This document shows positions 34,178 through 59,998 of a stretch of 64,000 nucleotides of DNA, in pieces (within the stretch, counting starts at the first letter, position 1; the number at the start of each line of letters is the position of its first letter). The DNA lies in NCBI GenBank assembly GCA_963794945.1, contig CAWCFT010000006.1, positions 117,714 through 181,713 on the forward strand, read 5' to 3'. The notes below the pieces were generated by a model, which saw only the letters and a program-made list of their open reading frames with translations, made no database searches and was not told the DNA's origin. The DNA is from Endomicrobiales bacterium. Lineage in GTDB: Bacteria; Elusimicrobiota; Endomicrobiia; Endomicrobiales; CAWCFT01. The translations under genes and the position numbers were made by a program.

Positions 34178-35722
34178 ATGATAAGCTTTTCTGGCTTCGT
34201 GAAACTGGGTGCCGCGATTCACATCAAAAGAAGTACATTCAGAGCCCTTAACTGGTTCCGATCATGCTTTAAGATGAAAAAAACCGTATCCATTTTTACC
34301 CTTTTCTGTTTTATTTACACTTCCATTTTATCCCAGCCCGTAGCAGCGGTATTTGAAAATACCGGAGAACAAAATAAGTTAAACTCGCTTAAATGTGAGC
34401 TGCTTATACCTTACACTTCCGGAAGGATCACTGACGCCAGGTGTTACGACTCAGATATAACTGTTGTAAATATTCAAGACCTGCACTGCAACGCTGAAGC
34501 CCAGACCAACATATCGCGAATTATCTCATTACTCAATGAGAAATATAAACTTAAGAACATCTACGTTGAAGGCGCTATAGGCCAGGTGGACACTTCATGG
34601 CTGACATCAATAAAAGATACAAACCTAAAGAACGAAATTACCGATACCCTGCTCAAAGAGGGCAGGCTCACCGGGCCCGAATATTTTTTGGTCATGTCCG
34701 GCAACCCTAAAGTCCTTCTCGGCATAGAAGACGAGAAGCCGTATAAAAATAACATCGCGCGCCTCAATAAGATCATAGACTGCCAACCAGGCATCCAAAA
34801 CATACTTTCAGCGATGAAAAAAGACGTTGACACCCTGAAAAACAAGTATTACGTCTCCCAGCACCGCCATCTTGAAGGCTTGGCTGAAAAGTTTAAACGC
34901 GGGGGCCTGAGCACTGAGGATTATTTCCGCAAACTCACGCATTTCTCCAATAAACTTAATATAGACATTAAGGATTACAGTAACATTTCCTGTTTTCTTG
35001 ATGCTATGAACCTGGGGAAGTCGATAGATTTTAAGAGAGTTAACGGTGAAATGGTTGAATATATTTGTTTTCTCAAGAACAGGATCCCATTTTCCGCCTA
35101 CAATTTCCTCACCGGCAAAATGGGCGACACTTCGAAGGCGGACGAACTTTGCCTCAACCTGTTAAAGATGTCCCAGGATTACAATGTGCCGGTGCCTGAG
35201 CACATGCACCAGTTGAGAAACTTTTTAGATTACGTGGCATTAAGCCGGAAGGTCAACCCTATAGCCTTTATCAAGGAAGAAGATATGCTTATAAGGGACC
35301 TTCATTATAAACTGTCAAAAAGCGAGAGTGAAAGAGAAGTTATTTTTCTTATCAGTTATTTCAAGCAGTTAAGCGATTATTACACCAACAAAATATCGGC
35401 TGACGACTATGCGGAATATTCACAGAATATAGGCCGTTTTAACCTGCTCTGGAAAAAGCACATAAACTCAACCGGCCCGGAAGCCTTTGAGCCGTACGCG
35501 GAGCTTTTCAGCGATTTCTATGCTACGAACCTGCAAAGAAATGAATGTTTTATGCGAAATATTTTCGGAAAATTCGCGAATACCGGCGCCTCATCCGTCT
35601 TTACGTCTCCGTACCCAGAACCAGATCGCGAGAACCTCTCAAACCTTAAAAGACGCAAAAGAAGTAATCGTGGTTGTGACGGTGGGCTTCCACACCACAG
35701 GGCTTGCCAAACTTCTCTCTGA
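34178..35722 (+). CDS. Giant B N-terminal segment: signal peptide plus conserved IQDLHC domain
   Basis: ATG 34178 follows GGGAG (alternative ATG 34274, MKKTVSIFTLFCFIYTSILSQPVAA); IQDLHCNAEAQ, YVEG, GIED, NKISADDY and RNECF are collinear with the giant A N-terminus. Confidence 0.8.
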   Translation: MISFSGFVKLGAAIHIKRSTFRALNWFRSCFKMKKTVSIFTLFCFIYTSILSQPVAAVFENTGEQNKLNSLKCELLIPYTSGRITDARCYDSDITVVNIQDLHCNAEAQTNISRIISLLNEKYKLKNIYVEGAIGQVDTSWLTSIKDTNLKNEITDTLLKEGRLTGPEYFLVMSGNPKVLLGIEDEKPYKNNIARLNKIIDCQPGIQNILSAMKKDVDTLKNKYYVSQHRHLEGLAEKFKRGGLSTEDYFRKLTHFSNKLNIDIKDYSNISCFLDAMNLGKSIDFKRVNGEMVEYICFLKNRIPFSAYNFLTGKMGDTSKADELCLNLLKMSQDYNVPVPEHMHQLRNFLDYVALSRKVNPIAFIKEEDMLIRDLHYKLSKSESEREVIFLISYFKQLSDYYTNKISADDYAEYSQNIGRFNLLWKKHINSTGPEAFEPYAELFSDFYATNLQRNECFMRNIFGKFANTGASSVFTSPYPEPDRENLSNLKRRKRSNRGCDGGLPHHRACQTSL

Positions 35723-38700
35723 ACGACATATCTCTTATATGGTTGTTACGCCAAATGTCACTGAAAACCCAACAGTTTCTCAAGCCCTTTATGTAAAGAC
35801 CGCGAAGATGCAGGCAAAAATACTTGAACAGGCCCTCGCTCTTTTACTGTTATCGCAAAACCCCGCAAGTTATAAATACGAAGTGATGGCCGAGTTGGCC
35901 TTGACTGCGCTATTTAGAAATATGGGGAGTACACCCGCGGAAATTACCAGGCAATTGCAGGAAGCCATCAAAGGAACCGGCGAAGCCAACCAAATGATCT
36001 TCAGGAGCATAACCGAGCAGGCGGCGTTGAAGCTCGCGAAAGATAAAAATATCGATATAGCCAGGGCAAGAAATGCTATCGCGAACACGGAACCCATAAT
36101 AGCTTACGACGAAAATACTTCGATCATTTCCTTTTCTTTTGAGGGCCTTACCACGCCGATCGAATTATTGTTCAACAAAAATACAAGAACCGTCACTTTC
36201 AAAGACCGCGAATCCACCGAAAAAGCTTTTACAAGGGAATACCCCAAATATTCGGGCGCTGAGCAAAAAAACTTGTATTATAGGCTGAAACGCTACCTGA
36301 AATTATCCGTGCAATTCGCCCCAAATTACGAACTGCCAGTTATACTTGGCGCGCTGGTTTCTAGGCAGGCTAAAACCGAATTCTTGTCTTTACACGGGTC
36401 CAACTGGCTGCAAAAAATAGCCCGTAGTTTCGGCTTTTTCTCCATGCAATTGGTCCACAATATATTGTCAAGGTTAACCGGTTCCGATGCTTTAGCAAAC
36501 AGGGCACTGATAATAACACACAGGGTATATAACCTGTTATTTTTATGGGCTCCGCTTAAAGCCTTGGCTTTTACAATTTTTATTGATATAAACGACCCGG
36601 CAACTACCAGGCAAGACTTGAAACTGCTGCTCAGATTTCTTCCGAATATGAGGAACAGGAAATATTTGATAAATGAATATGTGGATAAGATAATTGCCGA
36701 GCGTTCTAAAGCTGAATTTGAGTCCATTGACGACCTGGGCGGGCGCACAGGGATCCCCGAATACGTTTTAAATGACCTCAAGCGTATGCTCAAACTGCCG
36801 GACACAAACAAACAAGCGGAAGAAAGCACCCCTCCGGCGGACACAAAAAGCAAAGATACCGCGGCTACTGAAGCTGAAAAAATCAAATCGGAATTTCTTG
36901 AAGAGCTCGGGCTTAAACCAACTCCCGAATTATTGAAATTAAACTATACAGATGAGCTTATTCCAGAGGTCAATAAATTAAGGCAATTCGGCCTTCAGGT
37001 TACGCCAAAAAATATTCTTTCAAAAATTGACGCGGCGGCGGAATTTTCAAAAGAAGTACTGGAAAACATCGATCAGCTTGCAAAGGATACCGCGGCAAGG
37101 GCTAAAGCTATAGATAAACTAAAGATCTTCAACATGCTTCAGCCGGAATTATTCAAAACAGTCACCGAAAACGGCAAACTACTGGGCGAGTACGCGCCGG
37201 TTATCATACCTAAATCCGGCAGCACAAGCGTTAAGTATTACGGAGGGGATGAAATAGGCTGCGGCGGCATATGGATCACCTCAAAAATTGGAGAAAAAAA
37301 CACTTCATTAATGCTTGACCCGGGCATAAATATGAGCAGAGAAGGCCAGCTTTTTGACATAAAATACATGAGAGACAAATCGGCCCAGGGGATCAGAGAC
37401 CGGCTTCTTCTAGGCCTCATGCCTAGAATAAAGGGCTTGTGGAGAGACGACCTTACAGAAAAAAATATGAAATTAGGGAAAAAAGAACCCCCCGCCGCAG
37501 GCATATTGTTGTCTCACGCCCATATGGACCACTCAGGCAACCTTGCTTTTGTGAGGCCGGATATCCCCGTTTACGTTGGCCCGGAACTCTGGGCCACGTT
37601 GAGAACCCTTGATAATTCCGGCTCGGATGTAAAAAAAGAATTTTTTGAATATCAGAACAGGGAAACGGGGATGATGGAGCGCCGCGACATTAGGGTGTTT
37701 GAATACGATAAGCCTTTTAAGGTAGGAGACTTGGAAGTGATAGCGGTAAGAGTAGACCATTCCGAATCAGGCGCCTGCGCTTTTTTTGTGAACACGCCGG
37801 AAGGATGGGTGGCCTGGACAGGCGATCTAAGAATGAACCGCGGCATAGATAAATCCGGGAAATATTATTCCTATCAGGGGCTCACGGAGAAGTTTATCGC
37901 AAAAGCCAGGGAGCTCGGCATTAAACTTCTGTTTATAGAAGGCACGGCTTTTAATTCAAACCACGTAAAAAGCACCGAAGAAGACGTCGCGGTTAAAGCG
38001 GATGAAGTCGTCAAAAAAGCCAAAGGAAACCTTGTGCTCGCTAATTTTCAATATACGAACATAGAAAGAATGAATGGTTTTCTGGATGCCGCTAAAAAGA
38101 ACGGAAGAAAACTTGTTATTTCCTCAAAAGAAGCGTACCTGCTTGAAATGCGCAAAGAGAGCCATTTAAGGATGTTTTTAAAACAGGCCGGGTTTGATAA
38201 GTTATATGATGTAATCTACAGAGGAGACGTAGTTTCAAGGAAGATCGATTATTCTGGAGGGGAATCATTGAAGGACGGTATCTACAGCGGGATAATACTG
38301 CAGGCTCAGATATTTCAGAGCTATATCGTTAAAGACCTTCTTCAAGAATTTGAAGAACAGAACTCCTACGGAGGAGAACTGCTTGCCCGTGTCCTGGGGT
38401 ATGTGGGTAAAATCAATTCTAACGGCAACAGTATTCCGGATGACAGGCTCGAACGGTTACTGTCGCTTGACAACAAAAACGGCAAATATGACGAAGAAAG
38501 CTACAACGCCTTTGAAGCGCGCCGCATGTTCATCAACTGGCTTGAGAATAAAGCAGCGTCTGGAAATCTAAAAGAAATGCTTCAATCTTATACGGCTGAC
38601 TATATCGGAGTTTATCCGTATAATAGGGCTGAAATTGACGTAGATAGCGCAAAAGAAGAATTGAATAATGACCGCGCGATCAGTTCTCTTATTATTAAAA

Positions 38701-41700
38701 AATCCTGCCGCACAAAGGACGCGCTGGGTTCACTTGAGCAAGCGGGGCTCACAGATGCCTTTAACGAGATCCTCGATATGCCTGATCTTTATAAACATGT
38801 TGATTTGAATAGGCTTAAACTTGACCCCAGTATCATTGCTTTATTAAACGGCATCAAAGAACAGCTTGCCTCGAACAGAACGCCAAGTCTGGTAAATACC
38901 CGTATGGTCAACAGGGATATTTTGCTTAAGCTTTACCCGAAAACACTGGAAAGGAGCCGCGTATTTAATAAATCAGGTAAAAAATATTTTGATGCCGATA
39001 TATTAGCCCGGAACAGCAGTGAGCTGGCTCAACTTATAGAAGATTCTTATAATACAGTAAAGGAGATAGATGAGGATAAGCTTGAGAAAACAGTAAAAGC
39101 GTTCGATGTGCGCAATTACGGAATACCCGATCTGTACAAAGAAGACGGCCTGCTTGTTTACCAAACCCGCAAAAAATCGGGTACCTATATCAAGTCAGAT
39201 TACAGGCGTTTTGAAAGGCTCCTTTTCACTGATAAATCAATTAAAACGCGAATAATCCGAAAGCTTAAAGACGACGGTAACAAGATAATACTGGGAGTAA
39301 CTGATGAGCATGGCAACACCCGGGAAGTTACGAGGCCTGAAATTATCCTTTGCCTTAATACTCACGAGATATCCGAAATCCGCGGAATATCGGAACGCAC
39401 GGAAGACACCTACCTTATCAATTCGCAATGCCTGCCGTTCAATATGGAAATGATACTGGCCGAGAAAGCCATGGAAGAATGGCTTAAAAGAGAGAACATA
39501 CCAGGGGAGAGGCTTAAAAGGTATGATATGCACGCTTCCGGACACCTTATGGATGACCAGCTTCTAGATGTAGTAAAGGAGATTAACCCCAAGAACGTTT
39601 TTATTGTCCATTCTCAGGGAAGGAAAGAAATGGCGTCTTCAATGATCTATAATGACACCGTCCCTGAGGCCCAGGTCTCGGTTCCATCCTACGGGAAAGA
39701 ATACCAGTTTCTTGACCATGACTCCGCGTACCAGCCGCTTACTCCGGCTATTATGAATTCCCTTCCTTCGGAATTCAGGAAATACCTTAAAATATTCACA
39801 AAAGCGGAACTCGCGGATATTTTTTACGACATGGCGAAGACAAAAACAAAGGAAAAGATGGAAGAAGAGATACTGGCGCGTTTAAAGGAAGCGAAAAAAA
39901 GGGCCAGGGTGTTTACTCCTGAAGGGAAACAGGATTCGAACGACCCCGCGGATGTCAAAGACAAAGTAGCTGAATTAAGGCAATACTATATCTCTCAGCT
40001 TTTGCGGCTTAAAGTGCAGGAAATACTCGGCATACTGCCCAAACATGCTTTAACCGATGCGGAAATGGGGCTTAACAAGAAAATTATTAAATTCATCCTG
40101 AAAACCATGTCGTGGCAAGACTTCTTGCTTGAGCTGACAGAGAAAATCAAGGAACAAAGCAGTGATCCAAAGGCGTCGCCAAGAAAAGAGGCCAGGGCAA
40201 TATTAAATACCATAGAAGACAAACATTCAAGCATAATACTCTTTCGTTCAACTGCCGAACTGCGCTCGCCTCTTTTGTTCCTGATGACATTTAAAAAGGG
40301 CACGAATAAGGAATACGCGAAACTTGGGGCTGAAATTATTTACAAAAAAATATGCAGTTTCTTTGAAGGCGTGGAAAGCGAATCCCCCCCGCAGCTGTTC
40401 GGCGGAAACATTGACAAGGCCGTGAAGGTTTTCTCTAAAAATGATGAACTTTTTCACGATGAAGATCTAGAATACGTAAAGGACGCTCTGGACGGGATGG
40501 TGGTCTATTTAGGAAATAAAGAGATCTCAAAGCGTATTTTAGAAAAAGCAGCTGAATCAATCTCTGACATGAATCCGCTTGAAAAACCTTTGGAAAACAA
40601 GGCGGTGGAAACCGCCGAAAAACTCACTTCTGAAAAACCAAAAGCGGTAATAACTTCCCGCGCTCAGCCTCCACTGGTCATAGTTAACCCCGGGTTAGCT
40701 TCCGAAATGCACAATTCCGAAGGCGCCCTGTCAGGCGTTGAAAAGCTTCTGGAGCTTGGCTCAAAGGTGGTTATTAAGTGCGATTTTAACAGTCAGGAAC
40801 ATGTGCTGAACTTTAAGATCAGCCTGATTAAATACCTGAGAAAAGCCTACCCGGTTAAAATACCAGAATACATGCTTGCCAATATAATAATTGAAAATTT
40901 CGGCAATTATTATGACATAAATAACACTTATATTCAGTACCCGCTGAATAGCAACTCAATAACGCTCGATTCAGGCGAAACCTCTTTTGAAGAACAACTC
41001 AAGGAATTAATTGACGCTATTGAAGGCCATAAAATTGACAAATCCCTTAAAGAAAGCCCCTATTTTAAAGAAAACTCGAAGCTGCTTGAACAAAATGGTA
41101 TCTCTGATAAAGACTTTACCCTTACTAAGGACTTACGGCTTCCTTTAACACTGGAGCTGTTAAAAGAATACGGCCTGCCGGCGGACTTGATATCAACATA
41201 CGGACTGAAAGAGCTTCAGGCTGTTATTTCAAGAATTAAAAGTTATGGCAAACCGGTAAGCGCGGCTAATCTGGACAAAACTGATGAAGAGCTGAGCGAA
41301 TCGTTTTGCGATGAAGCCCTTGATCTTATAACGAGCAACACTGAAAATGACTGGATCCGCCTCAAGGAACTGTTCAATCTTCAGCCATCCCTGTTCATGT
41401 CAATTACAGGCGGAGGTAAACTGGTTGAAAATAGAAAGGATTTTCTTCCTCAAAAAGCAGGCGGTATAACTTTTTATAACAGGACAGACAGGATATCAGG
41501 CAATATTATAGAGCTCAGGGATGGAGAGAGTAAGATGTTCCTGGATATGGGCTCAGCAACTAGGAACAATGATGAGTTTTTTACAGGATGGGGCGGGTTT
41601 AAGGTTGTAGATAAGGTTGAGGGCAGCGCCGCTATAGGCCTTTTGCCGTGGCTTCCAGAAATACTCAGAAAAGACATGTTTAATGGCGAAAGTAGCGGTA

Positions 41701-50700: not shown

Positions 50701-53700
50701 CCGGCCACGAATATTGAAAAGGAAAAACGCCTAGCGATGACTATGATAAACCCGCAGGCGCCGCTCAACGCCCATTTGATCAAGTTCATGGAAAAACTTG
50801 ACCATTTCAGGGATTTTGACAGGCTGGCGGATGAATCATATAAGAAAAAGTACATCAAAAGAATGACCAATGTGTTCCTTCCTTTCCTGTTCCAGTCAAG
50901 GCTTTCCGACGCGGTTAAGAAAAAATTCCTGGCTGAACTGATGGTTTTTCCCGCTATAGCGGCGCAAATTCCCGCCGAGCTGAAGCTCATCGTGGCCAAG
51001 CCTGATTATTGGGAGAAAGTTTCCCCTGAAGAAAATGTTTCCGGGAACATTAAAATAGCGCTTAAAGTCGCCCGCGGTTTTATTGGAGAGTTCACGCTGG
51101 AGGATTTCATTAAAGCTTATGACAATGAAGGGTTTAATAATAAATTCCTGAACGGGCACACGATAACTGAAACTTATGCCAGGAAGAACCTTGAGGAGCT
51201 GTCCAACTTGAAATTCGTCGAAATAATAGAAAGAGGCGAAAATACATTTTATAAATGCTTGTCTGTCGCTTCAGGCGGCGATCCGGCGGTAGCTTTTGTG
51301 AAAGAATTTGACAATAAATACACAAGCCTGGGAGTTTCGCGGTACTCCTTGATAGGAAAAGACGGTGATATGTCAGTATTTTTTGACCTTCTGACCGGCC
51401 TTTTCGGCAGGTACGGCCTGGGGCGCGATGAGCGTAAGAAAGAAGGCGAGCGCCTTCTGGGTATATTGTCAAAACTGCCGGAGGCCGAGCGGAAAGAGTT
51501 TATAGATAAGGCCGCCAGGCATTTCGGCCAGTATACATACCTTTCCAGCGGGGCCGGCCGGTATCTTTCGATCATGCTTGCGATAGAGTCCCACCTGAAA
51601 GGCTCGAACATATTTGGCCCCGAAGCCCTTGAGGCGGCAAAAAAACACCTTGAAGGCCTGCAGGTTCCCGATAAAAATTTACTTGATGACGCGATTAAGG
51701 ACGCTCAATCTAGAAATCTTTTGTTCTCCTCCGAAGCAAAGAACTCGCCTCCGGCGCCGGAAACGCTCCTTTTGCCGAATCCAAAAACTACAAGGCGCTA
51801 TCTGGATATAGGCGCCGGCTACAACGCCCTGGGCCTTCGCCTGGGCCAGATGATGTTCGGCAAACGCATCAAATGGGAAGGGACTGATATATTCTTCCCG
51901 GTTTTTGAAGAAAAAGACGGCAAAATCCGTTATCTCGGACAGGAAGCTTTATACAAAAATAATGGAATAACTCTTTATAACGCGGCAGCCGACCCTAACT
52001 CAGATATAGTGCGGCAGGAGTTCGATAAGGGCCCGTACAGGTATATTTCAATAAGCGCGCTTTTCCATCACCTTAAACCGGAAGGAGCAAAGGTTGAACC
52101 AATGCCGGTCGTTGACCTCAGCCGGCAGGAATCCTTGAAGGATTATAAGCTTGTCCTGCGCGGCAAAGGAGGAGACAAAGAATTCGACAGGAAGTATATA
52201 ATGGCCCGCGAACAACAGGATGTCATCGCGCGCGCTTTCAACGCTCTTGAGGACCGCGGCGTTCTTTTTCTTAATTTCGCGCCGTTCTGGTCGATGAGCG
52301 AGCTGTGGTTCGGCAACTCTCCCGAGAAGGTCACTAAAGAAGAGTCTTTACAGTCGATGGACAACGGCCTGACTTATTGGATGATACAGCGCGATGATGC
52401 CAACAAACAATTCATTATTTACGATAATGTGCTTTCGTTCAACGTGGTTTATCCTGACACCTTGGAACGTTTTCTGGATAACAAAAAGATTTTACCCGGA
52501 GATATAAAAGAGGACGCCCGCGCGCTTATACGGCAGGCCGACAGCCTTGTGTTTGCCGCGCAAACCGTTGACCACTCACGCATGAGAGCCGTTTTAAACG
52601 CTTTACAGGAAGCAAAACGCCTGCAAACCAGCCGACAGCCTCTCGGTCTTAGTGCGATACTTGAAGCCTACCTGGCCGAAATTCCTGCTGATAATTCAAC
52701 AAAAATAGATATATTAAAAGCGGCGCAAGAGCTTCCGGGCGCTTCGGTATCCTCAAATAATAGACCGCGAGACAAAAAATTATCTAACAATCAACAAAAC
52801 AGCGAGACACAGACAAAATCAGAAAGCGTTATTGAGCCCCAAGCCGCGCCAAAAGCTTCATATGAGTCATTCAGCCAGGTAAAAAATAAAGAACAATTAT
52901 TAGAGTTACTGAAAGCTGTCGCTTCAGGAAAAGAGGATGTTCCCGTTATATCAATTCAATCGTTATTCGCAGATAGGATCTTTGAAGGAAATAAGACTGC
53001 CGAACTGCGCAAGAGATTCACAAAAAAACCGTTTTCTTATATGCTGCTATATTCTAGCGGAAAAGAAATGAAGTTAAGCGGCGTTATTAAGGTGAAAAAA
53101 GTGCACTTGGATATGTCCGTAGCTGAAATAAAGCAGAGATTCCTGGCACAGTCAATGGATACGGCTCAAGAGGTGGATAGTTATTATGAAAACGCTGACA
53201 AAGGGTGTGTTATAGAGATTGAAGATGCGTTCCGTTTTCGTCAGCCGGTACCGTTAGATGAGCTTAGAAAAGAATTTAATTTCAATGCCCCGCAGAATTT
53301 CATGTTTTTTAATAACCTGCCGGGTGACACTGTTGCAACCGATAAAGACGCCGACTCACAAAGTAATCTTGCGCAAGAAGCACAAGAGCAAAAAGAGAAA
53401 GATACAGTTGCGGCAACATTTATAGAGACAGATGAAATAGTTAAAAATATCAAAAGCGAACAAGATCTGGATAAAATTGTTCCTATATTACGTAAGATAT
53501 TTGAGAATTGCTGGTCAGATAAAACACGCCACCCAGATTACCTTGGTGACGAGCTCCTTTCATCCGGTCAATGCTGGGTTACCGCCCTGGTCCTGGCAAA
53601 AACGTTCGGGTGGGAGTTTTACTACAACAAACAACAACATCAGGCTTCCGTAAGGATAAACAATTTTATCGTAGACCTGACTTCGGATCAGAAAGGTTTT

Positions 53701-56700
53701 GATCGCTACTGGTGGCGTATAGAGAATGCCCCCGCTGTCTACACACATTCAAAACCCATGGAAATATCAAAAGGAATGCTTTCAAACAAACGTTTCAAGA
53801 TACTCATGGAAAGCTTTTCCAAGGAATACAGCAACACAATTCTTACTTCCGGCGCCCGTGCAAATAATACCCCCCCAACCCTGACTTCACCCGCGACAAA
53901 AGCGCTGTTTGCAAAGCTTCATAAAGAGCCTGTTTCATTCTCTGAAATATGGAATATGAGCGTTAAATTCGCCCCCGTTGAGGAAGCAAATAAGGTAGCG
54001 CTTGCTGTTTCTAACAGGCTTGAAAAAACCTTATTTACAGTAGAGCATTTTGCTGGAGCGAGCAATGTTGTTAAGATAAAGGATCCCCGGGTAAACGGTT
54101 ACATAGTTGACCTTGCGAATTCTAAAGTAATTGTTGAACGCCTGAATATGCGCTCAGCTTCAGAACAAGCTTTCTATTTCTCATTCAACGCGAGCCAAAG
54201 GCTTCGAGTTCTTCGACATACCTATGCAAAACTCATGGGGCTACAGAATAATAGGCGATATAGTTGCTATTTATGACACTGCTCCAAATGGAAAAGGCAT
54301 TGTTCAGCTCTATCGTGTTAGTGACACCGGAATAAATGACATAACAGGCCTGAAGAGCTCCAAAGGATATAAACAAAGGCTGTCCGGCCTTAGTTTTATA
54401 GGCCTAATGGTAAATTACATCGCTTCTCCGATAGGGTTTGTGCCCGGTATTTTCTTCCCGGGATTTTCTAAATGGCTTATGCTGCATGTCAATATTCTGT
54501 CCCATCGCATATACAACGCCGCCGCCCTTATATTTGATTGGGCGGCGTTGACTAAAAAACATTATAAAACCCAGAATAAAAGAGCTACGCAAAAAGCCAA
54601 AGCTGTGCTCCGGGAAGCGCTGGCCAACTCCAGGCGGGGGTCGGATGCTGATATTTATGAGTATTCAAATAAACCGCCTTATGATGCCGAAGTCAATGAA
54701 GACGGTATTAAAATACTGGGCAGGTCAATGGAATATTACCCTGTCATTCAGAGCATCATTGCCCGTTTCCAAAATAGGGTAGACCTCGATATGACCCTTG
54801 ACGTTATGGGAGATATTTATGATGAAATATGGGCAAAAATAAAAACAGTTGAATATTTTATTACCAAAGACCGGGAAAAACTCGTTCTTAGCAACATTCA
54901 GCTTCAAAAGACGCTGCTGTGGATCGATGCGGTAACTGAAAATGCTAAAAAAGAACGAACGGTTGTCTTTACACACCAGGTATATTTTCATCCCGGCACA
55001 AGAGAGTCTCAGATAGCCGAAGGGTTGCGGCGGATAGGGCTTAGCGATGAAAATAAGCAACGCGGTAAACCAGGCTTCATCGATGATTTTATAGCGAATG
55101 TAGAAAACCCTCATAATATAGCCAGCCTGGGAGGGCATATTGACCATGTTAAACTGATTATTGATACCCGCGGGTATAAAGAGATAGCCGAAAAGATAAA
55201 AGAAAACATCCCCGCAATAAAGGCAAAATACGGAGACAGGTTTGATATAGTTATTCTTGATGATATTGTAACTAAACCTTCATCGGCCGAAGCCGTAATA
55301 AAAGATATTAAAAGCATGGTGGAAAAATATAGCAAAAGCCGTGTTTTAGGCATTATAGAAGGCACGATCTACAGCCGTTACGTAGGGCTTCTTCTTGAGC
55401 TGAGGTCTTTAGATTATTTCTTCACTAACGGGTTCAAGGTTCTTTCCAGCGGAATAGAGATAGTGGGCGATAACGGCCAATATTTAACAGAACTGGACCA
55501 GGTAGTTGAAAGCCCTGCAGGTAAGACGTATATAGTGGAATGTAAATCCGCGCGCACTCCGCTGACCAAACAAGATGTCTTAAATTCAAAGATATTGTAC
55601 AAACTGGACACTTATAAAAAAGGATGGAACGCCATAGAGCGCGGCATAGGCAGAAAAGTTGATGGAATAAAATTTGTGGTGGACGTAGGGCACAATGAAG
55701 ACCTTATACCGTTTTTTAGAAACAAACAAATAGAATTAAGTGATAAATACGGTTTGCCTGTAGATTTTGTATTTTTGAAATGTATCGACCCGATCCCGCA
55801 GATACCAGGAGGCATTAATATTGTTGACAATGAAACTGAAACCGCGGTGCTGACTCTGCCAAGCACTAAAGGTTCATACAGAAAAGACAAGCCTGGTATA
55901 AAACAAATCGTAAAGAATCTGCTCCAAAACAGTGTAAAGGAAACGGCTCATGTTTCTAATTATATTGAAAGGTCAATCTTTTCAGCTGCCGGGCAACACA
56001 AGAGCGGGCTATTTAACCCCATAACTGCTCCGCAGAAAGTCCTGCTCGGAGCCCTCGACAGGTCGGCCAAACTGAAAGATATTGAACCAGGGCTTGTGGG
56101 TGTCACGCTCTTTAATTTGCAAAACAATGTGGAGAAAGCGGACATTGACAGATCCAAGGAGCTGGCAAACAACGGTTTAACGAACATTTTTGTTACGCCG
56201 GTCACGTCAGCGATAAAAGCCACTGGTAAATCCACATACAGCGATGGGCCGGTCACTTTAACCGCTAATGGGATCCCGTTCACTGTCAAGATCGGAAAAG
56301 TGGATCACGACGACATCAACTCTTCCGTGGCTGTGTATATCGATTTCGCCGGCAAAACCGTTGATAACAATACTCTTGAGCAAGCCGAAAACGAGGTTTT
56401 AAGTGAGCTATACAAAAATACTGTTCTTCAAAATGTTCTAGCCGATTACGGTGCCGTGATAAACCCTCAAGTACCTCCGATAATAACGGGCAGCAGAACC
56501 GCCAATGACGTTAACCCGTTCATTCTTGACCCGGTATTGAGCAAATCGATGTTCGCGGAGCAGATAGGTTCTCGGAGCGCAAATGATTATATTCAGATGC
56601 TCGGCAGGGAGCAGCGTAAAAAAACTATAGAGGCGGCGAGTTTACCGGGCGCTTTCTCCGGCGCGTGGATGGACCTTAAAACAGTCAACAAAGTGGCGTC

Positions 56701-58089
56701 GTTAAGGAAACATATAGACGGGCTGAATGCGGTTAACGGCGATATCCTGCGCCTGACGTCATTAGAAACTTGTGTTGGAGAAGGCAAAAGATTTTCAACC
56801 CGAGATATTGTTGACGTTGCCGAGTACGCGAGGGCCAGGAACATACGCGTGATCTCCAATTACGCCGTCGCCGGCGAAAACGCTGACTGGCAGAACAAGA
56901 TACTTGAAATGATAAAGAAATACCATCTCTACGGCACGCAGATCGATATCGGTGAAAATAGCACGGTGAGCGAGCCTGAGCTTGTAAAGTTAAAACATGA
57001 TATCGACGCGCTTGTGATGGCAAGAGAAAAAGATTTCGCTTTGTCGAGCTATATTTCCGTGACGCTGCCTCAAAATTACCAGTACATGGCCGGTGGTTTA
57101 AAGGGCGAAGGCTTCGAGATAATAAAGATCCATGTTCTCGGCCAGCAGGTGCGGTCTCCGGTCGTTGACGAAGCCGGCGTCCGGTACCGGTTGGTACTGC
57201 CCGGAGAAGATGAAGCGCAGACAATGGTAATAAATCCTGAAGCCGTAGGCGTGGAACTTGCGGGTATAATCAGCTCCCTGCGTAAGAGTAATATTGAATA
57301 TAACATTTCACTTCTTTACGGAGGCTTAAAGGACGGGCAGATCAACTCCCTTCAGGAATCCAGGCTTGTAGACATACTGTCAAGAGCTATCAGGCAAAAG
57401 CTGGACCTGAACGCTCCCAGTACCTCAGAGGGTTATTTTCTAAGAGGCATGCTTAAAGCGGGAATGCTGAGTAAAGCCGAGCTCTCCCTGATCAAAATAG
57501 ATTCACAGGGCCAAATTACAGGCGCCCTGTCGTCAAACAGCGCGGAAAGCTTTGCAAAACTTGAGAACAGCTTCCCTTCGGGCACAATGGTCGTCGAAGT
57601 ATCAAAAGATATCAGTAATATTGACGAGAAACGCGGGTTCTGGAGCTGCGCGCTCGGCAGCCAGATGGTTAACTCCATGCCGAAAGAATTGCTGCCGAAT
57701 GGGTTCGCTGAAAAAGCCTATTATCCCTTCCTTGGGGCGCTGCTCGTGCAGTCACAGCTGGCTTCCAATGCCGCTAATGACCCTTCCGAATCCGGCAAAT
57801 GGAACGGGTACAGAAATATTCTCACCGCCATGAAATCCGGGAATTCTACCAGAGCGGACGTAAATTCGCAGTTGAAAACATTTATGAGCGAACTAATGCC
57901 TTCCGCTATGGCCGGAACTCTCGGAACGGCCCACGCGAACTTGGGCGCCGGCAACTATAAAGAGATAATATCAATTCTGCTCGAATTTTCAGAGCCCCCC
58001 TGCCCAGTTTCAGGAACCTCGCTGACGAAGCGATTTTCAACGCCGAAGATATTACCATAGGCACGGCCCTTATCAGGGCGGCAGGATAA
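34178..58089 (+). CDS. Giant multidomain protein B (reconstructed, ~7,970 aa, frameshifted in this assembly)
   Basis: Four overlapping ORFs join by single-base shifts at ~35650, ~42050 and ~54225. A further shift in the C run at ~57995 extends the frame to TAA 58087-58089. Same N- and C-terminal domains as giant A. Confidence 0.8.
35487..42095 (+). CDS. Giant B segment: TM spacer, helix-hairpin-helix, RNase J-like beta-CASP metallo-hydrolase 1 and N-half of copy 2
   Basis: SHAHMDH, DHS, TGD, EGT, HASGH and VHS (copy 1, 37225-39720); THGHLDH and GHS (copy 2); IDIN...KIIAER...FESIDDL...GI (HhH, 36580-36800). Confidence 0.85.
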   Translation: MSRTRSFSAISMLRTCKEMNVLCEIFSENSRIPAPHPSLRLRTQNQIARTSQTLKDAKEVIVVVTVGFHTTGLAKLLSERHISYMVVTPNVTENPTVSQALYVKTAKMQAKILEQALALLLLSQNPASYKYEVMAELALTALFRNMGSTPAEITRQLQEAIKGTGEANQMIFRSITEQAALKLAKDKNIDIARARNAIANTEPIIAYDENTSIISFSFEGLTTPIELLFNKNTRTVTFKDRESTEKAFTREYPKYSGAEQKNLYYRLKRYLKLSVQFAPNYELPVILGALVSRQAKTEFLSLHGSNWLQKIARSFGFFSMQLVHNILSRLTGSDALANRALIITHRVYNLLFLWAPLKALAFTIFIDINDPATTRQDLKLLLRFLPNMRNRKYLINEYVDKIIAERSKAEFESIDDLGGRTGIPEYVLNDLKRMLKLPDTNKQAEESTPPADTKSKDTAATEAEKIKSEFLEELGLKPTPELLKLNYTDELIPEVNKLRQFGLQVTPKNILSKIDAAAEFSKEVLENIDQLAKDTAARAKAIDKLKIFNMLQPELFKTVTENGKLLGEYAPVIIPKSGSTSVKYYGGDEIGCGGIWITSKIGEKNTSLMLDPGINMSREGQLFDIKYMRDKSAQGIRDRLLLGLMPRIKGLWRDDLTEKNMKLGKKEPPAAGILLSHAHMDHSGNLAFVRPDIPVYVGPELWATLRTLDNSGSDVKKEFFEYQNRETGMMERRDIRVFEYDKPFKVGDLEVIAVRVDHSESGACAFFVNTPEGWVAWTGDLRMNRGIDKSGKYYSYQGLTEKFIAKARELGIKLLFIEGTAFNSNHVKSTEEDVAVKADEVVKKAKGNLVLANFQYTNIERMNGFLDAAKKNGRKLVISSKEAYLLEMRKESHLRMFLKQAGFDKLYDVIYRGDVVSRKIDYSGGESLKDGIYSGIILQAQIFQSYIVKDLLQEFEEQNSYGGELLARVLGYVGKINSNGNSIPDDRLERLLSLDNKNGKYDEESYNAFEARRMFINWLENKAASGNLKEMLQSYTADYIGVYPYNRAEIDVDSAKEELNNDRAISSLIIKKSCRTKDALGSLEQAGLTDAFNEILDMPDLYKHVDLNRLKLDPSIIALLNGIKEQLASNRTPSLVNTRMVNRDILLKLYPKTLERSRVFNKSGKKYFDADILARNSSELAQLIEDSYNTVKEIDEDKLEKTVKAFDVRNYGIPDLYKEDGLLVYQTRKKSGTYIKSDYRRFERLLFTDKSIKTRIIRKLKDDGNKIILGVTDEHGNTREVTRPEIILCLNTHEISEIRGISERTEDTYLINSQCLPFNMEMILAEKAMEEWLKRENIPGERLKRYDMHASGHLMDDQLLDVVKEINPKNVFIVHSQGRKEMASSMIYNDTVPEAQVSVPSYGKEYQFLDHDSAYQPLTPAIMNSLPSEFRKYLKIFTKAELADIFYDMAKTKTKEKMEEEILARLKEAKKRARVFTPEGKQDSNDPADVKDKVAELRQYYISQLLRLKVQEILGILPKHALTDAEMGLNKKIIKFILKTMSWQDFLLELTEKIKEQSSDPKASPRKEARAILNTIEDKHSSIILFRSTAELRSPLLFLMTFKKGTNKEYAKLGAEIIYKKICSFFEGVESESPPQLFGGNIDKAVKVFSKNDELFHDEDLEYVKDALDGMVVYLGNKEISKRILEKAAESISDMNPLEKPLENKAVETAEKLTSEKPKAVITSRAQPPLVIVNPGLASEMHNSEGALSGVEKLLELGSKVVIKCDFNSQEHVLNFKISLIKYLRKAYPVKIPEYMLANIIIENFGNYYDINNTYIQYPLNSNSITLDSGETSFEEQLKELIDAIEGHKIDKSLKESPYFKENSKLLEQNGISDKDFTLTKDLRLPLTLELLKEYGLPADLISTYGLKELQAVISRIKSYGKPVSAANLDKTDEELSESFCDEALDLITSNTENDWIRLKELFNLQPSLFMSITGGGKLVENRKDFLPQKAGGITFYNRTDRISGNIIELRDGESKMFLDMGSATRNNDEFFTGWGGFKVVDKVEGSAAIGLLPWLPEILRKDMFNGESSGIIPIESGKVKAVLLTHGHLDHIESLYALDPDVLIICSEETRAVLETFEWIQSDVKSEYTQIGDRTDMTLSRYPRLPRNILTFKANEPFEIEGTPFKIKPIRVGHSVPTDAFVIQNINGQGSLYRRPHTPKP
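42025..54276 (+). CDS. Giant B segment: beta-CASP copy 2 C-half, Zn-dependent deaminase, adenosine-deaminase-like, DHH/DHHA1, HD hydrolase, SAM methyltransferase, ASCH, YunG-like
   Basis: YTGD...EG...SPH...IHTE; HAE...EPCEHC; DNHGH...YHVAQ...GHA...NSDTP; DHH...GGGH; GEPLIYH...AALLHDVIE; YLDIGAG...FHHL; ISIQ...IFEGNKTAELRK...APQNF; CWSDKT...GQCWVTAL...DLTSDQ. Confidence 0.85.
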   Translation: MLLSFRTSMGKVAYTGDLTLQSHDGNDTKKFFEAIARDPDILALITEGINVRAEQRGSIRTEREYMEKVDKIIKDSNHKPVFTSFNWSYVNRLISYYELAKDNKRKLVIPLKILFFATKMRELGYNIPDLLSDPDVLIHVPQRKYASKIVKYVFELFGKSVSMSGSKVKQKAKTGPQVYGRLPEERMVTSDWMSVPANAESVIMVLSLSQLNEFNIMKPAPDSPFIYSAGVPFSDGLKALNTKIKTWTDMFLLNWHDLYVSPHINEYDLVQGLNPVDAKYVLPIHTERSWRFKQLFPFKRILLPKPLKEYSLLKNESKDKLTDARISGLEDQYEEFAHRMTDADYVTMLRGLPVLKNSIDFSAEIAGLVNDLSKKEKRVLPQDFLQLMSSYYTGQMLRVKFKEKYLLANEQELAAEAQSFLSAILDATLDFYKKSKKSLNLEAFDAMILGDFSATGKYLREANLVFVTNLSGSINVTILARLIAEAMYEITGGAIGLNPDEPVFENKLEFLHARINSPNYAEGVITEQNKTFPGYAYSRKSGLINSFVNALTNQNLISKANGSVPEAPAPGLSKIFDHIKDKLSEDSRALADHLKTTNNAAKLLNSLTVVKSRDDMRAELSKYAESRTAGRTTDPTVTGEYYQAQLLRLEVAQIYHTQSDQDILRQKEILNDVCSSHGYLGSTAGISAMLSKEFSDLGFITAENSEIFTIDSQALLQTVLTALSDHVEPKELRARWLEAWNNAKNRAPNLFDNSYPLAESHLYSIFYDISMMLTKDIKVDSDKISLILQLMNLKPYKGNWEQSKPWWSEGIPGVRMNNILAENVLNAAQIEDELGITYIVTASVYDKKGALIASHFPILYGDNSGFASKDVARIHAEQMLIKKLTDMGCTDFSKYTLVVSWEPCEHCSRHILYRGFKKVVFTCYDSRPELFGLSSQIIKLGKTEVVTPEMLEPGLEKHSLAFIRNNYGRLGERKPGEMTSGEWWPMATQIKHLEMWKDYMNSLGKQYLQKPMELPKGKKQLYEMVRKFHFYSIKEKSINEDYDARIRFTSMIIELMEKYGLTSGYPLSVVINADRIMAKKKLIESGAYGDNIEELLKDFQNKIDEIFEWRLTWKTELIKGPHWNYTLVGDKANAVELVNMLKNKITVAPEDNYRFKWLDINGITPKLSDIFDAQNLKQESSPVQPVQTADSNDKTLKELSRELNGLLPNNNLPLLTLDICERCYRYTSLEHAGLLLNNGEPCGKMAASVKKILLKKYLALKKDYLKQQGYNKLLKGISTFEGIINLGQMYLDQTGVMALGSWSITFDSSRNAYIIKLNRAEALSGLGRLAQTEYARFYHYNKLIQWSKGWEKDGVKIIIEDDQNTPRGSIAGLIETGQLGRLADNHGHIEGQVGSNFLWGLTMGSVDLPKGISREFRDALYPEKTKNKEVTAVIDWNNKGPDYVDNNQLLIAARKIRGKLIKDTVLPNTVSNANLLKAAMESGKSKVIDDIRTYFSLKHVFLNKALSIPYEGEGCTFMEFLNQHDTFATILKRRMKGGEMLKQDFALLTGMFVRQIIEEYKDNSYIEIRIQPKYDQEEMELAMKEAAKAVSEAKEKYPDLAANLVMVFRKRDSDQALRSQLTWFLDALRNDAKLRECFRGWDAASLEAGNPPEKFQFIANAVQQYNSEGFPRLNGTYHVAQGDEAAVGGKGHDIVTSMRYVDDVIEKLNCVSLGHALGVMFAFTGKPIEGPQEVNRGELLTTLNWLKQLNASDKIKVDISRVENTIQSKLDEYREIEGDPLIHFDKSFLNDMEAYQVARYVVKKIIDKNIFVEFNPTANVGSLYNMHPLTKLLMSDFVSNGEKFEGLRELVTINSDTPGMESINGVKDEFINIGAELIRQGMPPDKVANNLKILARNGRRRGILFTGKHNIIDVITEALELLAALPPIKDTAQASAKAAEATIKATEPKVVIEDLVDRAWKDKTSKLNFAKKKVNKIIKEIVSSYSLVIISQHHFVFPIDTDSFVFSAVTYKRLIKEAEKQGRSVELISDPEKAKNDGKLYICLFPISAINSGYMDEDKNKLNLAELEGKRALFVGDVNFGNAAPYKRNKSFGFDTIVVQDHHKWPDDLVAKLDEYSDDKTIYLNTHLFFDDKLADAYCSGAFQSDLLSTNRSNWDQFMKQLALVGDQYYRRDFPNYMKGVNIEEARYISDMLSLLGPRLAELKPDKNEQREVLMKVVQIMAQSKDFKELKTKLTETLSDELGKDFILYYDNVIALVEKSIEVFLASKEKIVFYKIDLPGDLTVTVSKMANDRLSYRKQFGYRALAHYQILPEGEVGFCIARGKNNENIDVSEPCINGPEGVNWGGGHENRAGFRTINANPEVKKKIQAWWGPEKNPQKVLDFVKANIENQYKKQQNNAVTKGKVIWINDIPSRPDLIEQQLSGSMLNSSKESVVVFEHLDEELLTLYRKVARGEISPSRLSDNRFIKEIFKHKEEELENFKTETAFMHLKVLYALYSLGKTINVETTPDNTYETDQATHLISESENQAANVFCNGDTDRAAEELKLCLEAAGPAAVERDEIIHSYINELYARNPALNLIIVREAMNFGLAKQLKTEGFDVALKWWKPRIQGLRMDQMAVLLSKYLIEKEMGKTTVKLPEEKIKMKLLRYLVGTLLRPAYAREREIKVLEQTINNITGRLDLKDLEELSKYISKRIDETDEDMGQIKTSVLKNGPKKNNYFDLYQAKKNAVIAGYILRWLIDSGKIHEREFNYFPYLNYFITEFKPEAGEADSIVISNNIPRPGSDRQAMDEIIQELLKTPESNIKIINQAYEFAREAYKGRIKADGEPLIYHAARVAHILMFELGCRDEEVLAAALLHDVIEKGGASSEQLSAKFGSDIATLVEFVSKPDEPATNIEKEKRLAMTMINPQAPLNAHLIKFMEKLDHFRDFDRLADESYKKKYIKRMTNVFLPFLFQSRLSDAVKKKFLAELMVFPAIAAQIPAELKLIVAKPDYWEKVSPEENVSGNIKIALKVARGFIGEFTLEDFIKAYDNEGFNNKFLNGHTITETYARKNLEELSNLKFVEIIERGENTFYKCLSVASGGDPAVAFVKEFDNKYTSLGVSRYSLIGKDGDMSVFFDLLTGLFGRYGLGRDERKKEGERLLGILSKLPEAERKEFIDKAARHFGQYTYLSSGAGRYLSIMLAIESHLKGSNIFGPEALEAAKKHLEGLQVPDKNLLDDAIKDAQSRNLLFSSEAKNSPPAPETLLLPNPKTTRRYLDIGAGYNALGLRLGQMMFGKRIKWEGTDIFFPVFEEKDGKIRYLGQEALYKNNGITLYNAAADPNSDIVRQEFDKGPYRYISISALFHHLKPEGAKVEPMPVVDLSRQESLKDYKLVLRGKGGDKEFDRKYIMAREQQDVIARAFNALEDRGVLFLNFAPFWSMSELWFGNSPEKVTKEESLQSMDNGLTYWMIQRDDANKQFIIYDNVLSFNVVYPDTLERFLDNKKILPGDIKEDARALIRQADSLVFAAQTVDHSRMRAVLNALQEAKRLQTSRQPLGLSAILEAYLAEIPADNSTKIDILKAAQELPGASVSSNNRPRDKKLSNNQQNSETQTKSESVIEPQAAPKASYESFSQVKNKEQLLELLKAVASGKEDVPVISIQSLFADRIFEGNKTAELRKRFTKKPFSYMLLYSSGKEMKLSGVIKVKKVHLDMSVAEIKQRFLAQSMDTAQEVDSYYENADKGCVIEIEDAFRFRQPVPLDELRKEFNFNAPQNFMFFNNLPGDTVATDKDADSQSNLAQEAQEQKEKDTVAATFIETDEIVKNIKSEQDLDKIVPILRKIFENCWSDKTRHPDYLGDELLSSGQCWVTALVLAKTFGWEFYYNKQQHQASVRINNFIVDLTSDQKGFDRYWWRIENAPAVYTHSKPMEISKGMLSNKRFKILMESFSKEYSNTILTSGARANNTPPTLTSPATKALFAKLHKEPVSFSEIWNMSVKFAPVEEANKVALAVSNRLEKTLFTVEHFAGASNVVKIKDPRVNGYIVDLANSKVIVERLNMRSASEQAFYFSFNASQRLRVLRHTYAKLMGLQNNRRYSCYL
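54224..58060 (+). CDS. Giant B C-terminal segment: TM spacer, PD-(D/E)XK nuclease-like domain, conserved C-terminal domain
   Basis: VNILSHRIYN spacer; GLLLE...TELDQVV...YIVECKS (55350-55790); C-terminal region resembles that of giant A; true stop probably 58089. Confidence 0.75.
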   Translation: MQNSWGYRIIGDIVAIYDTAPNGKGIVQLYRVSDTGINDITGLKSSKGYKQRLSGLSFIGLMVNYIASPIGFVPGIFFPGFSKWLMLHVNILSHRIYNAAALIFDWAALTKKHYKTQNKRATQKAKAVLREALANSRRGSDADIYEYSNKPPYDAEVNEDGIKILGRSMEYYPVIQSIIARFQNRVDLDMTLDVMGDIYDEIWAKIKTVEYFITKDREKLVLSNIQLQKTLLWIDAVTENAKKERTVVFTHQVYFHPGTRESQIAEGLRRIGLSDENKQRGKPGFIDDFIANVENPHNIASLGGHIDHVKLIIDTRGYKEIAEKIKENIPAIKAKYGDRFDIVILDDIVTKPSSAEAVIKDIKSMVEKYSKSRVLGIIEGTIYSRYVGLLLELRSLDYFFTNGFKVLSSGIEIVGDNGQYLTELDQVVESPAGKTYIVECKSARTPLTKQDVLNSKILYKLDTYKKGWNAIERGIGRKVDGIKFVVDVGHNEDLIPFFRNKQIELSDKYGLPVDFVFLKCIDPIPQIPGGINIVDNETETAVLTLPSTKGSYRKDKPGIKQIVKNLLQNSVKETAHVSNYIERSIFSAAGQHKSGLFNPITAPQKVLLGALDRSAKLKDIEPGLVGVTLFNLQNNVEKADIDRSKELANNGLTNIFVTPVTSAIKATGKSTYSDGPVTLTANGIPFTVKIGKVDHDDINSSVAVYIDFAGKTVDNNTLEQAENEVLSELYKNTVLQNVLADYGAVINPQVPPIITGSRTANDVNPFILDPVLSKSMFAEQIGSRSANDYIQMLGREQRKKTIEAASLPGAFSGAWMDLKTVNKVASLRKHIDGLNAVNGDILRLTSLETCVGEGKRFSTRDIVDVAEYARARNIRVISNYAVAGENADWQNKILEMIKKYHLYGTQIDIGENSTVSEPELVKLKHDIDALVMAREKDFALSSYISVTLPQNYQYMAGGLKGEGFEIIKIHVLGQQVRSPVVDEAGVRYRLVLPGEDEAQTMVINPEAVGVELAGIISSLRKSNIEYNISLLYGGLKDGQINSLQESRLVDILSRAIRQKLDLNAPSTSEGYFLRGMLKAGMLSKAELSLIKIDSQGQITGALSSNSAESFAKLENSFPSGTMVVEVSKDISNIDEKRGFWSCALGSQMVNSMPKELLPNGFAEKAYYPFLGALLVQSQLASNAANDPSESGKWNGYRNILTAMKSGNSTRADVNSQLKTFMSELMPSAMAGTLGTAHANLGAGNYKEIISILLEFSEPPCPVSGTSLTKRFSTPKILP

Positions 58090-58494: not shown

Positions 58495-59998
58495 ATGACC
58501 AAAATTATGCGTTTAAACATTGTAGGTATAGTTATTTCTTCCGCGCTTTTTTGCCTTTGCTCCGGCAACGCGTACGCCGGCAGCTATCTTATCAACGCCC
58601 GCAACGACTGCCTCTCCGCACCGCTGAAGAACAGGATGGATTCGATCGAAGCGCAGACCACGGAGTTCCTTAACCAACAGCAGTCGCCCGTAACGGGCCT
58701 CGTTGAGAGTTTCCACGGTACAAGCACCCTTGCTTACGACCTGCGGTCAAGCGCGTTTTACAATGTCCAGGACGGCGTCCTGGATGCCCAGTCCTTCACC
58801 TACGACAGCGCGATAGCGGCCATGGCTTATTTGCTTTCAGGCCATTTGGACAAGACACAAAAGATATTATCCGTTTATATGAATGAATTTTACCGGGAAA
58901 AAGGCGACACGAAGGGTTTGTGCAACTGTTACCGCACCGATGAGGTAAGCGAAAGCAGCCTGATGGCCGGAGTGGACGGCCAGCAGATGCATCTCGGCCC
59001 GGCGATGTGGGTATCGATCGCCGCGCTTCATTATTCCGCCGCCACCGGGGATATGCAGTACCTCGGCTTCGTTCTGGACATGGCCAAATGGGCGCGCAGC
59101 CAAGCACTGGGAGTTCGCGGACGGGAAATTCGGCGCGGCGTCAATGGGCTACGGTTTCGGGGCGGACTGGACAAAAGTATATTCCACAGAAAATAACGCC
59201 GACTACTACGCGGTGCTATCTATGCTTAAGAAGTTATACATGTCCGGCGATAGCTGCGCAAGGAGCGTGTTCGCAAGTTACAACTTCGGGTTAAAAGACA
59301 TCGAAAGCGAAATGAACGGCCTTGAACGCTGGATCAAAGAGGTCGCATACGACCCCGCAGAAAAGACCTTTAATTGCGGGTATAACGAAAAAGGCGCGGA
59401 CAGGGTAAGGACTCTCGATACCATTTCATGGACCATATCCGCCCTTGGCCCCTCCAAACTGAAGCAAATGGGTATCGACCCCTTCGAACTGATAGATTAC
59501 GCGGAACGTCATTTTCTTGTAATGAACGAAGTCTCGGGCAAAGAAGTTGAGGGCTTCGATTTTACAGACAGGGCCGGCAGGAACGGTTCGACAAGGTTGA
59601 TTTGGTTGGAAGGAACCGGGATACAAACCGTGGCTTACCAGATCATGGCGCGCTACGCCAAAAACCTCGGCCTGAGCGAAAAGGCCGAGGAGTATAGATT
59701 AAAAGCGGTTAAATATTCGGATGAGCTCGAAAAAACAGCGTCAGCTGTCAAGCTTGGCGCCTGCGCGCTTCCATATACCTCAAAACGGCTCGCTGAAAAA
59801 CAGGTGACTTTCGCGTTTAAAGGCGCGTGGGAGCTGCCGCGAGGGCGCAACGGTGGCTGGGTTGCCTCCGTTTCATCAACCGTATGGCGTTATTACGCTC
59901 TTTGCGGGTTCAACCCGCTGAACTTCGAAAAGGAAATTGTTACTAAGGGAATAGCCATCTCGCGTGCGGCAGGCAGCCATAGCAATCCCAAGAAGTGA
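58495..59998 (+). CDS. Secreted protein, probable (alpha/alpha)6 six-hairpin glycosidase-like fold; frameshift at ~59100
   Basis: GGAGGAG RBS and signal peptide (NAYA); motifs TYDSAIA, HLGPAMW, STENN, LDTISW and WLEGT. ORFs 58495-59196 and 59144-59998 join through KHWEFADGKFGAASMGYG. Confidence 0.6.

Follow-up and report, generated by a model that had tools for sequence, protein, structure and literature searches.

Two strongly conserved beta-CASP ribonucleases carried by a modular giant protein of an uncultured Endomicrobiales bacterium

The closest described counterparts of the locus reported here are the Archaeovorin-type giants of Omnitrophota (West-Roberts et al., 10.1101/2023.11.21.568195; Seymour et al., PMC10066038; Nielsen and Lui, 10.64898/2026.06.07.730766), which are described as proteins of great length and little annotation that combine signal or transmembrane (TM) segments with mixed cytoplasmic-type enzymes and are encoded by one gene of more than 30 thousand amino acids (kaa). 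The first of these papers leaves open both the role of giant multi-enzyme proteins in Omnitrophota and Elusimicrobiota and their possible cleavage. Giant proteins of Elusimicrobiota have been noted but are uncharacterised in PMC11573180 and PMC12057145, and further related papers are 10.1101/2025.01.14.632903, 10.64898/2026.06.04.730025 and PMC10318531. Other likenesses are offered by the MARTX toxins and the TIKI superfamily (RRSP, EreA/BcR135, ChaN, HopBA1; PMC6254334), with their swappable effector-like modules and hydrolase module, and by the polyvalent proteins of phages and conjugative elements (Iyer et al., PMC5512222), which string nucleic-acid- and protein-directed enzymes together with a peptidase and are proposed to act in the recipient cell. 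The present study concerns a 64,000-nucleotide stretch (hereafter the window) of contig CAWCFT010000006.1, assembly GCA_963794945.1 (labelled G000), from an uncultured Endomicrobiales bacterium, and in it one gene, Giant B, which a preliminary description had read as a single protein of ~7,970 amino acids with RNA- and nucleotide-directed cargo.

Giant B is a genuine, translated gene and belongs to a family of modular giants found in Endomicrobiales. Its span of 23,912 nt (~7,970 codons) bears out the length and limits first proposed, but in the assembly it is not one open reading frame (ORF): stop-free pieces cover 34178-35722, 35466-42095, 42001-54276 and 54146-58060, followed by a short tail, and reading with genetic code table 4 leaves them unjoined. 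The four frame changes, across which no independent read was found, could be taken to mean that the region is a pseudogene in decay or comprises four or five genes, a reading that is hardly credible. The breaks sit inside conserved domains, that near 35.6k splitting the N-terminal module and that near 42.04k falling inside the second ribonuclease, and the orthologue in the related genome G004 spans breaks 1 and 2 with one frame of 3,328 amino acids and breaks 3 and 4 with one of 1,892. In a comparison of ordinary G000 genes with the proteins of G003 and G004, in which 381 of 515 queried frames had a match and best matches below 50% identity were discarded, 53 frameshifts were counted in 201.6 kb and 49 of 190 genes were affected, about a quarter, including purF, split by a frame change at G000:C6:46797-48129. 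At that rate ~6.3 frameshifts would be expected in 23.9 kb, and four were seen (P=0.25). Since the G004 orthologue bridges all four breaks, the rate matches that of ordinary genes and purF is split too, there is a strong inference, short of direct proof, that the breaks are sequencing indels at the background rate of the assembly.

The cargo contains two ribonucleases. The motif definitions applied to the beta-CASP, DHH, HD and adenosine deaminase (ADA) domains are those we take to be canonical. Both enzymes carry metallo-beta-lactamase (MBL) motifs 1-4, HxHxDH included, and beta-CASP motifs A, B and C, in Giant B as well as in G004, and match PF12706, PF07521, TIGR00649 and PDB entries of RNase J. 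They are not RNase J proper, as TIGR00649 is reached with 57 bits against a cut-off of 400 and only over positions 60-252 of its 546. Where stand-alone relatives of RNase 2 carry an organism name, that organism is an archaeon and identity is 24-28% (nine such rows among the 120 matches listed), and similar stand-alone genes occur in one other family of Elusimicrobiota. The likeness to the short archaeal-type beta-CASP RNases (RNase J-like, EF2904-like, PDB 2az4) extends, motifs included, over the whole domain of 450-500 amino acids; the putative enzymes of Giant B differ from them in being duplicated in tandem within a giant protein, one with a large insert. Judged by these residues, both archaeal-type beta-CASP RNases appear catalytically intact. 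The RNase-bearing form of giant was found in two of 201 genomes of the phylum, and in the largest family of the order only one of 63 genomes has any match to a Giant B RNase. A TIGR00649 scan of G000 (genome 86% complete) returned no stand-alone RNase J.

The insert of RNase 1 (window 38163-39215, ~350 amino acids) is 62% identical to its G004 counterpart across 224 aligned residues and gave no family match. Each RNase is preceded by a similar helical leader (window 36858-37190 and 41118-41420), which suggests that leader and RNase were duplicated as one unit.

The RNases are the most constrained parts of Giant B and are under very strong purifying selection, because, although silent sites between Giant B and G004 are saturated, their MBL cores retain 83% (RNase 1) and 90% (RNase 2) identity, against a median of 62% for 83 ordinary genes (90th percentile 76%, maximum 87%, figures biased upward by the 50% filter). 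RNase 2 shows 90% and 76% identity to G004 over its two parts, its N-terminal half being conserved beyond any of the ordinary genes compared, while DHH (70%), HD (64%) and head module (63%) follow at lower levels. The ratio of non-synonymous to synonymous substitution (dN/dS) lies at 0.05-0.27 in all 17 computable segments of 24. Other cargo turns over: the G004 orthologue lacks the Zn deaminase, ADA-like, methyltransferase, ASCH, YunG and PD-(D/E)XK modules, with the junctions lying within its contigs, and a giant of 10,958 amino acids in G003 carries the head, the ADA-like module, spacer 2 with the PD-(D/E)XK module, and the C-terminal module in another order. A direct view of cargo turnover is thus afforded by six modules that differ between two orthologues and by blocks reordered in a third giant, and the conservation of a 500-amino-acid RNase marks working cargo.

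Members of the family measure 3-12 kaa and share an N-terminal signal-like segment, a ChaN/EreA/TIKI-like head module and a C-terminal tail, between which variable cargo is gained, lost and reordered from genome to genome. The signal-like segment is alike in all 18 family N-termini displayed. The head module, missing from the domain list of the preliminary description, shows the two histidines, two acidic residues and conserved arginine of the TIKI/EreA/ChaN group, Giant B included, which retains the constellation D-x-H, E(+28), R and final H; with spacing compared with RRSP, H15, E43, R362 and H414 are invariant in 55 of 55 sequences and D13 is kept in at least 90%. The first 550 residues recur in seven giants of G000, and head-module matches were obtained in 34 of 41 relatives (up to 31 per genome) and in 51 of 151 genomes of the phylum. 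Among the best 80 of 298 related loci, 79 belong to Endomicrobiales or other Elusimicrobiota and none to Omnitrophota; one Atlas cluster matching the module at 0.90 is commonest in Omnitrophota. The closed 1.6-Mb genome G023 of the same order has no match, and the giant family is therefore dispensable in some lineages. In genus g10, with small genomes, the module is missing or has one to four matches (9 of 19 genomes with a match), against up to ~20 in most neighbouring genera, which suggests loss accompanying genome reduction. Of 16 giants, 13 close with the small-residue tail, compared with only 7 of 2,105 frames in G000, three of these being giant ends themselves. The hairpin spacer with its His-x-x-aromatic-Asn motif was seen in about half of the giants examined, often at module junctions. 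A literature search, whose coverage stopped short of bioRxiv supplements with domain catalogues and of subscription papers, returned nothing that describes the head module, the tail or the RNase cargo.

The two TM spacers of the preliminary description do exist as members of this motif family, but their hydropathy peaks, 1.88 and 1.56, are marginal. By hydropathy, the Giant B pieces contain two windows at 1.8 or above, one of them the signal-like segment, and some sister giants at least 20. The claim that HhH through YunG lie between the spacers and hence face one compartment adds little, because hairpins would not switch sides and all cargo of Giant B is probably on one side; which side that is depends on cleavage of the N-terminal segment.

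Giant B would work like an Archaeovorin but is set apart from that group by its phylum and length, by its gene context and by what was seen of TM helices and SecA. Its ~7,970 residues fall below 30,000 and its relatives belong to Endomicrobiales and other Elusimicrobiota rather than Omnitrophota; numerous TM helices were not seen by hydropathy; profile scans of Giant B returned no SecA-DEAD, glycosyl transferases or hydrolases, or HEAT/TPR repeats; and neither a type II secretion-like locus upstream nor pilZ and sugar import genes downstream were found at the locus. Where Archaeovorins have been described with N-terminal peptidases C39 and S8, the head here is TIKI-like; where they rely on one gene, these genomes hold up to 31 module matches; and the cargo of Giant B is RNA-directed, with almost no TM helices. 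Its sister giants are closer in content, since they carry SecA-DEAD, GT5, PGM, GNAT, HATPase, TPR, HEAT and GGDEF domains, besides kinase, radical SAM, glycogen-degrading, glycan and signalling enzymes and LysM and GA modules. Giants at L085, L086, L088 and L089, in the largest family of the order, with SecA-DEAD, 1,3-beta-glucan-synthase-like domains and many TM helices, are closer to Archaeovorins than Giant B is.

To MARTX and polyvalent proteins Giant B is similar in logic only. The head module probably shares the TIKI fold and has its 2His/2acid plus Arg constellation (PMC6254334), but it is a constant head and not a variable effector, the N-terminus is of Sec type, and autoprocessing is only proposed; Pfam and NCBIfam scans of Giant B found no RTX/MARTX repeats, CPD autoprotease or type I secretion. 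Polyvalent proteins belong to mobile elements, whereas this family is chromosomal, multi-copy and signal-bearing, and no phage or conjugation genes were seen among the 23 flanking ORFs scanned; the accessible text of PMC5512222 mentions neither Elusimicrobiota nor Omnitrophota.

The reading preferred here, to which a probability of about 0.45 is assigned, is that Giant B is an exported contact protein destroying the RNA and nucleotides of a neighbouring cell. The protein would be exported, stay tethered to the membrane and come into play where the cell touches another, in line with what has been proposed for the giants of Omnitrophota; the TIKI-like head would be a hydrolase, serving either to process the polyprotein or to open up the target; and the working cargo would be an RNA-destroying set, in which two RNases and the DHH phosphoesterase take RNA to nucleotides. 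The cytidine deaminase and the PD-(D/E)XK domain may add damage in some lineages, and the ADA-like, HD and nucleotidyltransferase-like domains may be decaying passengers or binding modules. By analogy, export for contact is supported because the sister giants carry Archaeovorin cargo, SecA-DEAD included (10.1101/2023.11.21.568195), and because the prey of an Omnitrophota predator lose ribosomal RNA (rRNA) while DNA persists (PMC13153191). Should the targets of the RNases lie in other cells, free-living bacteria related to the endosymbionts of termite flagellates would rank as antagonists or predators. A bolder and rather doubtful extension is that the Endomicrobiales giants form a self-processing effector platform, in which a TIKI-type protease head would cut the chain once exported, probably close to the hairpin spacers, and release cassettes into the contacted cell, Giant B being an RNA-destroying cassette armed with archaeal-type RNases. 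Such a platform would provide a molecular cause for rRNA loss in the prey of related giant-bearing predators, and would make free-living Endomicrobiales predators or parasites of other microbes. The 470-residue constant head with its conserved hydrolase site could be the processing enzyme of hundreds of giants, and the locus makes both the role and the cleavage of such proteins testable with small proteins.

The same cargo could face inward. With an uncleaved N-terminal anchor it would lie in the cytoplasm of the producer, as a membrane-tethered machine for RNA turnover or abortive infection (anti-phage defence), activated by cleavage. This is unlikely, though it has points in its favour: all cargo types are cytoplasmic enzymes, a stand-alone RNase J was not found in G000, a TM-only prediction applies to 46% of the long proteins of Omnitrophota (10.64898/2026.06.07.730766), and for several modules the best matches are defence proteins, with E values of 0.004 (RADAR deaminase), 1.7e-4 (CARF-ADA), 2e-20 (PDC-M11B), 0.0011 (CARF-PD-(D/E)XK) and 3.5e-5 (anti-phage dCTP deaminase). 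Most of these matches are weak, however, the N-terminus resembles a cleavable signal family-wide, the sister cargo consists of glycan and signalling enzymes, LysM and GA and not of defence, and the scarcity of the RNase in the largest family of the order indicates no housekeeping need. An outward-facing complex could also digest RNA and nucleotides of dead biomass at the surface or in the periplasm, without contact or killing. RNase, DHH and deaminase do make a coherent route from RNA to nucleosides, an export signal is present and sister giants hold glycogen-degrading enzymes, but scavenging is improbable: family cargo often needs ATP, SAM or acetyl-CoA (kinase, HATPase, GNAT, GT5, radical SAM), which are scarce outside cells, no transporter adjoins the gene, and the entry enzymes of de novo purine and pyrimidine synthesis (purF, pyrB) are present in the genome. 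The latter likewise weakens the nucleic-acid harvesting first suggested, while shutoff of a putative host is plausible.

More improbable still is that the giants are structural surface scaffolds which absorb random domains by recombination, so that the theme arose by chance and most cargo is inert. Degraded ADA-like, HD and nucleotidyltransferase-like sites and the six modules missing from the closest orthologue agree with it, and so does the statistical test of the theme. In a hand tally of non-repeat Pfam domains, with thresholds that differed between scans, nucleic-acid or nucleotide domains made up 5 of 6 in Giant B and 13 of 55 in 16 other giants (22 of 55 counting ambiguous phosphoesterases), giving p=0.007 (strict) and 0.055 (broad), or 0.02 and 0.11 with the RNases counted once; multiplied by 17 giants, p ranges from 0.12 to 1, so that the enrichment does not survive correction for the post-hoc choice of Giant B. 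The lean over the family background is thus suggestive only; the Pfam scan of Giant B found none of the glycan enzymes common in sister giants. Against inert cargo stand the RNase cores, conserved above the head module and, in the N-terminal half of RNase 2, above all 83 ordinary genes compared, and the low dN/dS of every segment for which it was computable. The nucleic-acid-directed character originally claimed accordingly holds for two intact, conserved RNases and an intact DHH common to the G004 orthologue, but not for the methyltransferase, for which nothing points to RNA, nor for YunG with its Cys-His-Asp set, and the HhH and methyltransferase matches are weak.

Features of the Giant B locus, in window coordinates
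Feature	Position	Strand	Remarks
Giant B gene	34178..58089	+	~7,970 codons, read across four frame changes near 35.6k, 42.04k, 54.2k and 58.0k
Signal-peptide-like or anchor segment	34277..34351	+	basic pair, hydrophobic core, conserved Cys-Phe; probably cleaved
Family-defining N-terminal module	34445..35840	+	ChaN/EreA/TIKI-like core, large helical insert; split by break 1
Spacer 1	36384..36578	+	hydrophobic hairpin ending in family His-x-x-aromatic-Asn motif
HhH-like segment	36678..36800	+	weak, E 0.009
Beta-CASP RNase 1 (RNase J-like)	37203..39725	+	all metal-binding motifs present; ~350-aa insert
Beta-CASP RNase 2	41433..42960	+	tandem duplicate, motifs present; split by break 2
Possible nucleotidyltransferase-like domain	43138..43710	+	by eye only; acidic pair kept in G004, altered in Giant B
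Cytidine/dCMP-type Zn deaminase	44518..44970	+	HxE and PCxxC intact; not found in G004
Adenosine-deaminase-like module	45568..47805	+	best PDB match RADAR deaminase 8fnw
DHH/DHHA1 phosphoesterase	47878..49200	+	motifs present
Alpha/beta domain without family assignment	49228..50160	+	shared with G004
RelA/SpoT-type HD domain	50368..50970	+	two Asp lost; paralogous copy keeps them
SAM-methyltransferase-like domain	51763..52680	+	weak; not found in G004
ASCH domain	52888..53325	+	Pfam; near PADLOC PDC-M11B, E 2e-20; not found in G004
YunG domain	53443..53850	+	Cys-His-Asp invariant in 11/11 aligned sequences; not found in G004
Spacer 2	54371..54568	+	module junction after its end; G004 has different modules there
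Module ending in PD-(D/E)XK nuclease-like domain	54578..55795	+	motif present; 48-54% identical to mid-giant block of G003
Conserved C-terminal module	55943..58015	+	common to giants of G003, G004 and G012
C-terminal helix and family small-residue tail	58016..58089	+	reached only after break 4

The domain order from HhH through PD-(D/E)XK is as first described, and of the eleven domains named, seven were recovered by profile or structure matches (both RNase J-like domains, the cytidine-type Zn deaminase, and the ADA-like, HD, ASCH and YunG domains). Two have their motifs with weaker or indirect matches: DHH reaches 0.94 in the Atlas but has no Pfam or PDB match, and PD-(D/E)XK matches at E 0.041 and, to CARF-PD-(D/E)XK, 0.0011. 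The remaining two are weak, HhH matching the PolC C-terminus with further searches giving nothing, and the methyltransferase at E 0.17 with nothing useful from another search. The idea that catalytic residues are generally lost applies to the ADA-like and HD domains but not to the RNases, DHH and cytidine deaminase; the last two sites appear intact by their motifs. The Zn deaminase matches an anti-phage dCTP deaminase (E 3.5e-5), and the DHH of Giant B type was found only in G000 and G004 among 104 genomes of the order. The ADA-like module (E 0.004 to the RADAR deaminase, 1.7e-4 to CARF-ADA) keeps HxH and the third His, with Gln in place of the catalytic Glu and Thr in place of the second Asp, and so lacks the full residue set of an active adenosine deaminase; a copy inside the 10,958-residue giant of G003 (L022:13531-15789, G003:C11) has the complete catalytic set. 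The HD domain likewise keeps its dyad but not the full set of an active (p)ppGpp hydrolase, which has the HD dyad, a Glu-Asp pair after it and a metal Asp further downstream; both Asp, whose catalytic role we assume from RelA/SpoT work, are replaced in Giant B and G004 and kept in the L005 paralogue. YunG is a probable thiol enzyme, to judge from the invariant Cys-His-Asp. A PDB search gave no support for the nucleotidyltransferase-like domain, and the C-terminal module is possibly a degenerate TIM barrel (GH20, E 0.03-0.07).

The neighbours of Giant B are a second giant, two ORFs without assignment, and flavodoxin, FMN reductase, CMD and FeFe hydrogenase genes. The second giant, the paralogue Giant A (window 33789 to ~4900, minus strand), lies head-to-head with Giant B across ~390 AT-rich bases. 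It shares the head module and the tail with Giant B and has repeated spacers that are nearly identical; the assembly breaks it into at least 13 pieces, with PHP (two copies), cNMP, PLD (two copies), metallophosphoesterase, GH38-like, ATP-grasp, HEAT and LOG (two copies) cargo. Directly after Giant B, two overlapping ORFs (window 58495-59998), with no Pfam match, are possibly one gene split by an indel. G012 (L110, L111, L113, L116), a genome listed at 2% contamination, contains rpoC twice, as separate matches, and has more than one match to rpoB.
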